A stretch of 29,986 nt of DNA from a virus, in UHGV virus genome UHGV-0038722; one strand, 5' to 3'. Both the position numbers and the translations under genes were made by a program. The notes beneath the pieces were generated by a model. The model had not been told where the DNA came from, did not search any database, and saw only the letters and a program-made list of their open reading frames with translations. Below, in pieces: positions 19,499-27,344 of this stretch (positions are counted from its first letter, which is position 1; the number at the start of each line of letters is the position of its first letter).

Positions 19499-19971
19499 AC
19501 CTCAATCTCTCTGACCGTTCCGCCTGCTTCTTTGAATTTTGCAATCAGGCTGTCAGCCTTATGCTCGAACTGACCATAACCAGCGCCCGGCAGTGAAGCC
19601 CAGATATTGCTGCAACGGTCAATTGCCTGACGAATATCACCACGATCAATCATCGGCAAAGCGCCACGCTCCTTAATCTGCTGCAATGCCACAGCGTCCT
19701 GGCTTTTCGGAGAGAAGTCTTTCAGGCCAAGCTGCTTACGGTAGGCATCCCACCAACGGGAAAGAAGCTGGTAGCGTCCGGCGGCTGTTGATTTGAGTTT
19801 GGGGTTTAGCGTGACAAGTTTGCGAGGGTGATCGGAGTAATCAGTGAATAGCTCTCCGCCAACAATGACGTCATAACCATGATTTCTGGTTTTCTGACGT
19901 CCGTTATCAGTTCCCTCTGACCACGCCAGCATATCGAGGAACGCCTTACGTTGATTATTGATTTCCACCAT
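19495..19971 (-). CDS. R: Endolysin R (lytic transglycosylase), lambda R-like
   Basis: 158-aa ORF essentially identical to lambda R from memory ([51 protein letters not shown]...). Confidence 0.95.
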
Positions 19972-20278
19972 CTTCTACTCCGGCTTTTTTAGCAGCGAAG
20001 CGTTTGATAAGCGAACCAATCGAGTCAGTACCGATGTAGCCGATGAACACGCTCGTTATATAAGCGAGATTGCTACTTAGTCCGGCGAAGTCGAGAAGGT
20101 CACGAATGAACCAGGCGATAATGGCGCACATCGTTGCGTCGATTACTGTTTTTGTAAACGCACCGCCATTATATCTGCCGCGAAGGTACGCCATTGCAAA
20201 CGCAAGGATTGCCCCGATGCCTTGTTCCTTTGCCGCGAGAATGGCGGCTAACAGGTCATGTTTTTCTGGCATCTTCAT
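19955..20278 (-). CDS. S: Holin S (lambda S107/S105 dual-start class I holin)
   Basis: 107-aa [42 protein letters not shown]... identical in pattern to lambda S; Met1-Lys2-Met3 dual start. Confidence 0.95.
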
Positions 20279-20402
20279 GTCTTACCCCCAATAAGGGGAT
20301 TTGCTCTATTTAATTAGGAATAAGGTCGATTACTGATAGAACAAATCCAGGCTACTGTGTTTAGTAATCAGATTTGTTCGTGACCGATATGCACGGGCAA
20401 AA

Positions 20403-20432
20403 CGGCATGAGGTTGTTAGCGCAACCTCATGC
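20403..20432 (-). other. Stable RNA hairpin in the late leader upstream of S
   Basis: Perfect 11-bp inverted repeat ggcatgaggtt / aacctcatgcc with 8-nt loop; followed on minus strand by GUUUUGCCC. Confidence 0.6.
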
Positions 20433-20569
20433 CACCCGCTTTCACGAAGCCAGCCATTGCGCTGGTTTTCTTTTATGCAAAGCACACCGCACCGTAGCCA
20501 CAGCGGATAAGGTGATTATTTTTGTCTGTCTGGTATTTGGTTTGATGTGCTTTCAGAAAGGCCGTGCTT

Positions 20570-20606
20570 AAAACGCAAAAAGCCCCGAGCTATTAACTCA
20601 GGGCTT
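20570..20606 (-). terminator. tR'-like rho-independent terminator of the short pR' transcript
   Basis: Minus-strand hairpin agcccugag-uuaaua-gcucggggcu followed by UUUUUGCGUUUU. Confidence 0.8.
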
Positions 20607-20632
20607 TATTTAACGAGTGCATTTATCCATCG

Positions 20633-20669
20633 TTGAGTCAAATTTACCCAACTTTATTCAAAAAGTCAA
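20633..20669 (-). promoter_or_regulatory. Late promoter pR' with qut region
   Basis: Minus strand -35 TTGACT (20664-20669), 17-bp spacer, -10 TAAATT (20641-20646), then ACGATGG initial transcribed sequence as in lambda pR' (from memory); directly downstream of Q. Confidence 0.75.
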
Positions 20670-20711
20670 TATCATGCCGTTAATATGTTGCCATCCGTGG
20701 CAATCATGCTG

Positions 20712-21335
20712 CTAACGTGTGACCGCATTCAAGATATTGTCTGCGATTGACTCTTCCTTGTGGCATTGCACCACCAGAGCGTCATACAGCGGCTTAACAG
20801 TGCGTGACCAGGTGGGTTGAGTAAGGTTTGGGATTAGCATCGTTACAGCGCGATATGCGGCGCTTGCTGGCATCCTTGAATAGCCGACACCTTTGCATCT
20901 TCCGCACTCTTTCTCAACAACTCTCCCCCACTGCTCTGTTTTTGCTATATCAACCGCGCGGCCTGTACCGTGGCAATCTCTGCATCTTGCCCCCGGCGTC
21001 GCGGCACTACGGCAATAATCCGCATAAGCGAATGTTGCGAGCACTTGCAGTACCTTTGCCTTAGTATTTCCTTCGAGCTTTGCCACACCACGGTATTTCC
21101 CCGATACCTTGTGTGCATATTGCATCAGATAGTTGATAGCCTTTTGTTTGTCGTTCTGGCTGAGTTCATGCTTACCGCAGAATGCAGCCATTCCGAATCC
21201 GGCTTGTGATTGCGCCATCCCCATAGCAGCCATCACATCAGTACCGGAAAGAGAGTCAGAAGCCGTGGCCCGTGGTGAGTCGCTCATCATCGGGCTTTTT
21301 GGCGAATGAAATTTAGCTACGCTTTCGAGTCTCAT
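20712..21335 (-). CDS. Q: Late antiterminator Q (lambda Q type)
   Basis: 207-aa ORF MRLESVAKFHSPKSPMMSDSPRATASDSLSG... matches lambda Q nearly residue for residue from memory. Confidence 0.95.
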   Translation of the reverse strand: MRLESVAKFHSPKSPMMSDSPRATASDSLSGTDVMAAMGMAQSQAGFGMAAFCGKHELSQNDKQKAINYLMQYAHKVSGKYRGVAKLEGNTKAKVLQVLATFAYADYCRSAATPGARCRDCHGTGRAVDIAKTEQWGRVVEKECGRCKGVGYSRMPASAAYRAVTMLIPNLTQPTWSRTVKPLYDALVVQCHKEESIADNILNAVTR

Positions 21336-21520
21336 CGTCTTCCCCTCTTGCCCTGTTTGACCATCAGGACGCCGTTAACTATTACGTGACGCTCGCCTTT
21401 GCTGTCTCGGTTGTACTTGAGCACTGTTCCTCTTGCGCAGGAAAGCATCCTCGCCACTTCGGTCTGATTTCCTCGTGTCTGGATAAGCAGTTCTGGTATC
21501 GTTTGAATTGTGGCGTTCAT
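21332..21520 (-). CDS. ninH: NinH-like protein
   Basis: 62-aa ORF; IPELLIQTRGNQTEVARMLSCARGTVLKY resembles lambda NinH; immediately upstream of Q. Confidence 0.7.
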   Translation of the reverse strand: MNATIQTIPELLIQTRGNQTEVARMLSCARGTVLKYNRDSKGERHVIVNGVLMVKQGKRGRR

Positions 21521-26470: not shown

Positions 26471-27344
26471 GAACTTTCAGGTAGGTATTGTCGTTAAGCA
26501 GGAAATCAAATCCCTTTTTGTGCCAGACGGTTCCGCGTTGATGGTTTGGACGCTCTTCGAACATCCATCGGCAATTTTCGCCTACGTAGCTCAAATAATT
26601 TCTCCAGTCCTGCATCGTGAAACCATGCCCGTCAAGCTGTCGGGTTATCACTCCGGCTTTGCGCCAGAACGTTCGGATCTGGTTTTTACGCTTGTCATTC
26701 AGTGCGCGGATTTTTGGCGCTTCAGGAAGGATTTCGTGGTAAGCATCGACAACATCCTGACAGCTAACGGAAGGTTTTTTCTTGTCAGACTTTTTGTCTG
26801 CTGCGGTACTCTCTAATACGTCAGTATTAGAGATAATATTATTATATTCTTTATCTGTGGTAATTTGCTGGTAATCTGCTGGTACAGTATTGCTTGCAGG
26901 CATTGGTATTGCTGGCTTTGAGGTGGTAATTTGCTGGTAATCTGCTGGTACAAAATTTGACTGATAATCGTCATATTTCTCTACCGAGAAAACTGAGAAT
27001 TTACCGTGTGAAACCCAGTCAATCATGCCGAGTTTTTTGAACTTTCTAAGCAGGTACTGAACGCGATCTGGTTTGAGTCCTGTTTCAAACGCCAGAGAGT
27101 TTCTACCGCCAAGTAGCTTCCCTCTGCCTACCAGAATTTCTCCTGCGTCAGTCATTACATACTCAGGCGTATGCTTTGCTTTGAGGATTAAGTGAACCCA
27201 CAGATGCGCAGCTTCTGCGTCCTTGTAAAACGGCACATCCATAATTTTACGGTGCAGCAAGGCATACCCCTTACCGCTGCTTTGATGCGGTTGTTGTAGC
27301 CTTCTGGCCTCTCTGGCTTCGGCTAGATTAGATATGTTACTCAT
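26445..27344 (-). CDS. Replication initiator, O-like (P22 gene 18-like), containing origin iterons
   Basis: 299-aa ORF upstream of helicase; internal protein repeat [10 protein letters not shown] x2 coinciding with DNA iterons. Confidence 0.8.
26857..26952. repeat. Origin iterons: 30-bp direct repeat gtggtaatttgctggtaatctgctggtaca at 26857-26886 and 26923-26952, each built from a ~10-bp sub-repeat tgctggtaat
   Basis: Direct repeats 66 bp apart inside the O-like gene, analogous to lambda ori iterons within O. Confidence 0.7.

Follow-up and report, generated by a model that had tools for sequence, protein, structure and literature searches.

A conserved, imperfect quasi-palindrome in the late leader upstream of the holin gene of lambdoid phages

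A hairpin between the tR' terminator and the holin gene S of a lambdoid phage, here called hairpin A, lies at the left edge of the conserved S-leader module; it is itself conserved, as an imperfect quasi-palindrome. Its stem is perfect in the phage studied here, but this state is a rare coincidence, the chance match of two independently polymorphic sites. We tentatively favor, at somewhat less than an even chance, the reading that hairpin A is a non-essential structural part of the late-mRNA leader with a role in processing or stability and at most weak termination. The tR'-S stretch belongs to the most studied phage genome, yet hairpin A (45031-45060 in lambda) is unannotated in the records examined, which were those of lambda, P22, Emek, HK140, HK544 and epsilon34. 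The site offers several testable oddities: polymorphism peaks sharply here and the loop has been inverted repeatedly, an endonuclease gene of the homing type uses the same place, and two adjacent helices show opposite A.C/G.U strand biases.

Hairpin A in the late leader

The DNA analysed, called the window, is a 29,986-nucleotide stretch of virus genome UHGV-0038722. The source is a lambdoid phage of the HK544/HK140/HK022 kind whose late genes are encoded by the minus strand; the Q-S interval is 97-99% identical to those of HK544, HK140, HK106, mEp234 and HK022. Features of the interval are listed in Table 1. Alignment with lambda, P22 and Emek revealed that the pR'-tR' part is of the short P22 type and that the lambda S leader makes up the last ~170 nt ahead of S. 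In the aligned records of P22 and Emek the same tR' hairpin is annotated as a terminator. R, Rz and Rz1 come after S. Relative to the window, lambda has ~135 more bases between pR' and tR' (20579-20669 in the window; the 194-nt 6S RNA region of lambda) and a further ~100-nt insertion ahead of the S leader.

Table 1. Features of the Q-S interval of the window, in the order of late transcription
Feature	Coordinates	Strand	Remarks
Q	21335..20712	(-)	
Late promoter pR' (TTGACT-17-TAAATT) with qut site	20669..20641	(-)	HK544 and HK140 annotation
tR' terminator hairpin of the late operon, P22-type short 6S region	20607..20579	(-)	
Hairpin B, CCAGC-GCAAUG-GCUGG	20450..20465	(-)	16 nt upstream of hairpin A; AAAAGAAAA ahead
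Outer helix 5' strand, GCGGGU	20434..20439	(-)	Pairs with 20393-20398 in the MFE fold
Hairpin A 5' arm, GGCAUGAGGUUG	20422..20433	(-)	Stem position 5 is plus-strand base 20429
Hairpin A loop, CGCUAA (late strand)	20416..20421	(-)	
Hairpin A 3' arm, CAACCUCAUGCC	20404..20415	(-)	Partner of position 5 is plus-strand base 20408
GUUUU 3' of the stem	20399..20403	(-)	Candidate weak-terminator U-run, or 3' bulge between inner and outer helix
Outer helix 3' strand, GCCCGU	20393..20398	(-)	MFE fold; deleted in viable phage mEp235
Holin gene S, with hairpin A in its leader	20278..19955	(-)	ATG at 20278

On the late (minus) strand hairpin A reads GGCAUGAGGUUG-CGCUAA-CAACCUCAUGCC, with GUUUUGCCC next. 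Its place is the tR' to S interval of the untranslated late-operon leader, and 125 nt separate its end from the S ATG. A preliminary description of this DNA had placed a hairpin in the late leader upstream of S, followed on the minus strand by GUUUUGCCC, and this placement is confirmed. The inverted repeat described there as 11-bp arms at 20403-20432 is real, but the coordinates are one base off; the arms are perfect over 12 bp and enclose a 6-nt loop.

The hairpin A 30-mer folds with -20.7 kcal/mol (z = -7.65), and none of 200 shuffles folds as well. Common natural alleles of the stem range from -11.5 to -18.7 kcal/mol. Hairpin A is the longest perfect hairpin of the 30-kb window. A stem of at least 12 bp arose somewhere in 6/100 composition-preserving shuffles of the window; chance alone is thus not negligible as an origin by this measure, but it is ruled out because the hairpin is conserved in relatives. 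Hairpin A matched no family in a search of 19900-21400 against Rfam 15 at E<=1, which returned only two sub-threshold chance hits, and a literature search found no paper on it, termination included. Only one other perfect hairpin in the window has a stem that reaches 10 bp: TCTCTAATAC-GTCA-GTATTAGAGA, at 26810-26833 in an AT-rich stretch.

Variation at stem position 5

The lambda counterpart (NC_001416 45031-45060) is GGCAGGAGGUCG-CGCUAA-CAACCUCCUGCC. The preliminary description had given CAGGAGG/CCTCCTG for lambda, which is correct, and had noted that both arms changed with pairing kept, as they did: stem position 5 is G-C in lambda and U-A in the window. The lambda stem also carries a C.A mismatch at position 11. 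From the double change it was proposed that the hairpin is possibly maintained by compensatory substitutions.

Relatives were gathered with anchor patterns that cover the flanks only and leave the stem unconstrained. The patterns were CTTCGTGAA...CCTGGATTTGTTC for IMG/VR, TCACGRACAAA...CCTGGATTTGTTC for GTDB genomes and TCACGRACAAACCACG for P22-type leaders. Once lambda contaminants were taken out, 225 loci were parsed, comprising 122 lambda-type and 103 P22-type leaders. Among the GTDB contigs (L125-L169), the non-enterobacterial matches, which included Pseudomonas, Cohnella, Flavobacterium, MAGs and others, were mostly lambda DNA contamination. About a dozen GTDB contigs of ~3.5 kb have a T-rich, adapter-like start joined to GCGCTAACAACCTCC exactly in the hairpin A loop, and resemble a sequencing control amplicon.

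Position 5 is mismatched in 84/122 lambda-type leaders (G-C 35, U-A 3, A.C 33, G.A 23, U.C 18, A.A 10). The 103 P22-type leaders have A.C in 72, A-U in 27, U.C in 3 and G-C in 1. Overall, Watson-Crick pairing at this position was observed in 66/225 relatives (29%), and 58 of the 87 distinct haplotypes are unpaired. The whole stem is paired on the late strand in only 7/225 relatives; 97% are imperfect. In lambda-type leaders the 5' alleles (G, A, U) assort nearly independently of the 3' alleles (C, A), close to linkage equilibrium, and in the first IMG/VR set alone U-A was observed 2 times against about 4.8 expected. No association was found between the arm alleles and either the upstream module or hairpin B. 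The mismatched intermediate is common and the compensated state rare, and therefore the result is the opposite of what is expected under selection for pairing. Related phages disrupt the stem freely, the two sites varying independently, and the proposal of covariation kept by selection fails.

The origin of the perfect stem can be seen in the near relatives of the window. HK544, HK022 and HK97 have G.A at position 5, and HK140 and HK106 have U.C. The window, which differs from HK544 at 4/441 bases, combines the U allele of an HK140-type 5' arm with the A allele of an HK544/HK022-type 3' arm. A single recombination, or a single mutation that may be hairpin-templated, would lead from either mismatched neighbor to this state. 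A compensatory change seen in two sequences can mislead, and population data can reverse the inference drawn from it. In HK97 (AF069529, L317) the segment aligned to window 20393-20403 reads GCCGTTTGCCGTGC rather than the GCCGTTTTGCCCGTGC of relatives, because the U-run and the outer helix have each lost one base; these deletions are either real variation or an old sequencing error.

Hairpin B was used as a positive control for compensatory upkeep of a stem. Its stem is perfect in 126 genomes and exists in at least three versions (CCCAGC/GCTGGG, CCCGC/GCGGG and CCCCGC/GCGGGG).

Structure of the late leader

The preliminary description also raised the possibility of a functional RNA structure in the late transcript. 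While compensation at position 5 does not support this idea, the outer helix, stem position 10 and the persistence of the hairpin do. The outer 6-bp helix GCGGGU/GCCCGU, formed around a 5-6 nt 3' bulge, is paired in 98.7% of cells. Four of its six pairs vary, and all of the variation preserves pairing. Over the 87 distinct haplotypes one pair is C-G in 43, U-A in 37 and U.G in 7, and the others alternate between G.U and A-U, G-C and G.U, or U.G and C-G. Stem position 10 switches between lambda-type and P22-type leaders (U-A 37 vs C-G 39, with 11 C.A or other). None of 500 shuffles reached the observed covariation score, a control that ignores relatedness in what are essentially two clades. Covariation of the outer helix and position 10 is only suggestive of structural constraint because of this control and because most of it separates just two clades, representing few independent events.

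Lambda-type, P22-type and HNH-type leaders all have a hairpin, placed at a constant distance from the invariant CCTGGATTTGTTC block. In HNH-type leaders the arms are different, GGGATACTG/CAGTATCCC; a variant with compensated arms, GATGCTG/CAGCATC, and flipped loops also occur. Hardly any variation between the leader classes is seen at stem positions 1-4, 6-8 and 12, while the flanks are ~20% diverged.

Two isolated phages lack parts of the structure. In N7 the 3' arm of hairpin A is replaced by an HNH gene cassette. In mEp235 (JQ182731, L279) a 71-nt deletion directly after GTTTTGC, aligned to window 20328-20398, takes out the 3' strand of the outer helix together with the GAACAAATC/GGATTTGTTC hairpin of the S leader. 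Because of these two phages, neither an intact hairpin A nor the outer helix is essential.

Hairpin A is presumably transcribed within the Q-antiterminated late mRNA, where it would form the top of a stacked stem. The base of this stem may be a 5-bp helix, CGUGA/UCACG, which is predicted by folding and lies inside the search-anchor sequences. The middle would be the outer helix, apparently under pairing constraint, followed by the 3' bulge, and the top would be the mismatch-tolerant 12-bp upper stem. The most likely role would be post-transcriptional, helping to set how the lysis and late message is processed or how stable it is.

Phage RNase III hairpins (T7 R1.1 type; lambda N-leader and sib) consist of an upper stem, an asymmetric internal loop or bulge and a lower stem, and are located in long polycistronic transcripts. 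By analogy, hairpin A may be such a site; its architecture is alike, and a stable P22 leader fragment ends nearby. An RNase III site comprises about two helical turns of near-continuous duplex, whereas the helices of hairpin A are predicted to be 12+6 bp, or 23 bp with the putative basal helix, and the upper stem contains non-wobble mismatches in many alleles. The stable fragment is P22E, an abundant sense-strand sRNA of P22 (PMC13397905 Table 2). It spans the leader from 21 nt past tR' into the loop of hairpin B, 27 nt ahead of hairpin A, so that in P22 the leader is processed, or yields 3' ends, close beside this element. A leader structure that governs how the lysis message is processed, or how long it lasts, would have a bearing on lysis timing.

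A hairpin in this leader that affects S expression is already known in lambda, the sdi stem-loop (structure-directed initiation; CCCC-UUAUU-GGGG). It is a separate element that adjoins the S start at about 20283-20296, and hairpin A lies 125 nt upstream.

Polymorphism, loop inversion and an HNH gene

Polymorphism was scanned over 520 nt in the 87 lambda-type leaders that align to the window without indels. A minor-allele fraction of at least 0.1 was reached at six sites, of which four belong to the stem (positions 5, 10, 11 and 5'). Averaged over sites, this fraction is 0.051 for hairpin A, 0.003 for the remaining leader and 0.004 for S. Thus the stem is ~15x more polymorphic than its flanks, in a leader that is otherwise almost invariant, which argues against the reading of hairpin A as an RNA structure. 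Within the 5' arm, positions 2, 5, 9, 10 and 11 are variable in relatives.

The loop also varies, and it has been inverted repeatedly among relatives, with both orientations seen on similar backgrounds. Flips were observed between CGCTAA and TTAGCG in Shimwellia pseudoproteus (L135), and between CGTCAA and TTGACG and between CTCGAA and TTCGAG in P22-type leaders (loci such as L181, L177, L260 and L219). At L260 the inversion took a stem mismatch along, swapping A.C into G.U. These flips show that DNA-level processes act on hairpin A, a second point against an RNA role.

The spot of hairpin A is taken, in N7 and some 30 IMG/VR prophages, by a gene for a 173-aa NUMOD4+HNH_3+HTH endonuclease. The N7 gene (ORF53; MH717096) lies at 633-1154 of locus L280, and its relatives (L281-L308) are 63-100% identical. 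The gene is always found between hairpin B and the S leader and replaces part or all of hairpin A, its left junction falling inside the 5' arm or directly after CTTCGTGAA. Downstream of it are the hairpins GGATGCA-N8-TGCATCC and GGGATACTG-CGCAAA-CAGTATCCC. Collinear genomes differ in the presence or absence of the gene at this site. It looks like a free-standing homing endonuclease. Free-standing homing endonucleases include the products of the T4 seg and mob genes and the HNH/NUMOD family.

Hairpin A could be a DNA-level element with no RNA role, a joint at which mosaic segments recombine and at which the free-standing NUMOD4-HNH endonuclease homes or inserts. Hypervariability would then reflect cleavage-resistant alleles and co-conversion, and hairpin-templated repair or inversion would keep the palindrome. 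We consider both parts of this reading rather unlikely, although much of the variation fits it. Homology between the lambda-type and the HK022/P22-type upstream regions starts 16 nt ahead of the stem, as at a mosaic joint. The concentration of high-frequency polymorphism in the stem, the near linkage equilibrium of the arm alleles, the repeated inversions, including that at L260, and the endonuclease gene itself point the same way. What a strand-symmetric role leaves unexplained is the contrast between A.C mismatches on one strand and G.U on the other, and an outer helix that varies only in ways that preserve RNA pairing. HNH-type leaders, furthermore, keep a hairpin downstream of the gene.

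A narrower version, which is distinctly unlikely, takes the palindrome as the recognition or homing site of the NUMOD4-HNH enzyme and positions 5, 10, 11 and 5' as cleavage-escape alleles. An arms race among lambdoid phages that infect the same cell would keep these alleles, and gene conversion induced by the endonuclease would shuffle them, a scenario to which we give equally little weight. The resemblance to a homing target lies in the position of the gene, which sits exactly here in some collinear phages, and in the local hypervariability of the empty site. However, the HNH gene may simply be a moron at a permissive junction. If true, the homing-site reading would account for a hot spot inside a non-coding stretch that is among the best conserved in lambda-like genomes and for the mosaic joint, and an endonuclease target at hairpin A would bear on how lambdoid mosaics form.

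Quasi-palindromes are known as mutational hot spots, examples being template-switch sites in E. coli and the 'flip-flop' inversions of non-coding hairpin loops in chloroplasts; template switching should make stems perfect. Hairpin A resembles such sites in that variation is concentrated in imperfect arms, the loop exists in both orientations, and a one-step change perfects the stem, as from HK544 to the window. It differs in that 97% of its stems are imperfect on the late strand and the mismatch types are strand-biased.

Termination

The stem and GUUUU could form a backup intrinsic terminator that stops leak-through from tR' without Q and is read through by Q-modified polymerase. Lysogens would be protected from expression of holin and endolysin. 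Neither the terminator nor the protection it would give is likely. Like the tR' terminators of lambda and P22, hairpin A is a stem-loop rich in GC that precedes the lysis genes in the pR' leader; the lambda-type form has a short U-run, and Q-modified polymerase would read through it. The 12-bp stem is stable (-16 to -21 kcal/mol), GTTTTG is present in 120/122 lambda-type leaders, the mEp235 deletion starts just 3' of GTTTTGC, and a position between tR' and the lethal lysis genes fits.

Several features do not fit. Compared with a Rho-independent terminator, hairpin A has only GUUUU, and GUUUUGCC provides only four U's, after a G. With a threshold of at least 5 T in 8, a terminator scan picks out tR' and hairpin B but not hairpin A. 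P22-type leaders keep the hairpin with no U-run, having TGATTT/TGATCT (UGAUUUG/UGAUCUG) in 101/103, and so do HNH-type leaders, which have UAAUGG. Nearly all natural stems are mismatched near the base, and folding predicts that the U-run bulges out of a longer helix. Unlike a tR' terminator, hairpin A has a stem that is usually mismatched, while hairpin B stays perfect by compensatory changes. The preliminary description had listed a terminator among the candidate functions. The stable GC-rich stem agrees with this, but the role is doubtful because the U-run is absent outside lambda-type leaders. Weak backup termination specific to lambda-type leaders is possible, where the stem and GUUUU may also stop some unmodified polymerases, yet it is not the conserved role. 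Tandem late terminators were reportedly described by Luk & Szybalski (1983); they are probably at the end of the late operon.

Strand asymmetry

The two helices have opposite mismatch biases. Transition mismatches in the upper stem, read on the late strand, are A.C in 108 cells at 11 positions and G.U in 4 singletons, whereas the outer helix has 151 G.U and no A.C (Fisher p = 0.018 on positions). An excess of A.C over G.U is the reverse of what late-strand RNA constraint predicts. The RNA-structure reading is further weakened by an upper stem that is usually mismatched on the late strand, for which RNAalifold gave no consensus upper stem (-2.4 kcal/mol). On the opposite strand 161/225 relatives, among them 94/102 P22-type leaders, have an upper stem made up entirely of Watson-Crick or G.U pairs, compared with 7/225 on the late strand; RNAalifold recovers the stem there with -22.7 kcal/mol. 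Both results arise because the late-strand mismatches are mostly A.C. Selection for a weaker late-strand hairpin is another candidate explanation, as it would favor A.C over G.U without an antisense transcript.

The pairing on the plus strand raises the possibility that the structure acts there, either at the 3' end of an antisense RNA or in single-stranded DNA, with hairpin A, 16 nt, and then hairpin B with UUUUCUUUU. Alternatively, it might insulate pR' and Q against leftward transcription. We regard both forms as quite improbable. In that direction hairpin B reads as a canonical intrinsic terminator, stem plus UUUUCUUUU, in the window and in P22 (A-run at 20466-20474 in the window; 853-878 of locus L002 in P22). 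Lambda, however, is without hairpin B, and the presence of hairpin B does not raise the paired fraction within lambda-type leaders. G.A, U.C or A.A, which are mismatched on both strands, occur in 42% of lambda-type stems, and the outer helix favors the late strand. A promoter scan gave no consensus antisense promoter in the window, P22 or lambda, and inspection by eye showed no -10 that is conserved between leader classes. Small-RNA sequencing of P22 placed 99.8% of phage reads in ten loci, none of them antisense here, while sense RNA was abundant (PMC13397905).

Possible persistence without function, and other candidates

Hairpin A might also be a functionless relic, a quasi-palindrome that persists by hairpin-templated correction and by hitch-hiking with the S leader under mutation and drift only. 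Its dispensability in N7, the deletion of the outer helix in mEp235, the common mismatches and a loop that is unconstrained in sequence and flips are what such a relic would show. It is nevertheless hardly a likely account. The hairpin is found in all three leader classes despite the divergence of the flanks, with the same stem positions nearly invariant, and no single mutation bias accounts for the opposite A.C/G.U asymmetries of the two helices.

A small protein gene across the hairpin (as HK140_065, as the 51-aa GTG ORF at 20330..20485, or as one of the frames ending at the loop TAA) was rejected because lambda has no start, P22 stops early, eight haplotypes have TGA at stem position 2, and loop flips remove the TAA. 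Inspection by eye also gave no match to LexA, CRP or FNR-type operators or to common E. coli and Salmonella restriction sites, and a sigma-54 promoter (TGGCAT-N4-TTGC) was dismissed with a GG-to-GC spacing of 9, not 10, and TCGC in lambda.

A second fold was noticed closer to S, on the late strand at 20297-20379. The segment GGAUUUGUUC (20339-20348) can pair with the upstream GAACAAAUC (20371-20379) or, alternatively, with the downstream AUAGAGCAAAUCC (20297-20309), which adjoins the sdi stem at the S start. The upstream pairing is AAAUC/GAUUU, and AAACC/GGUUU in another leader type (L288). GGAUUUGUUC, the segment common to both pairings, is invariant across leader classes. The two pairings could represent a mutually exclusive fold that acts on S translation.
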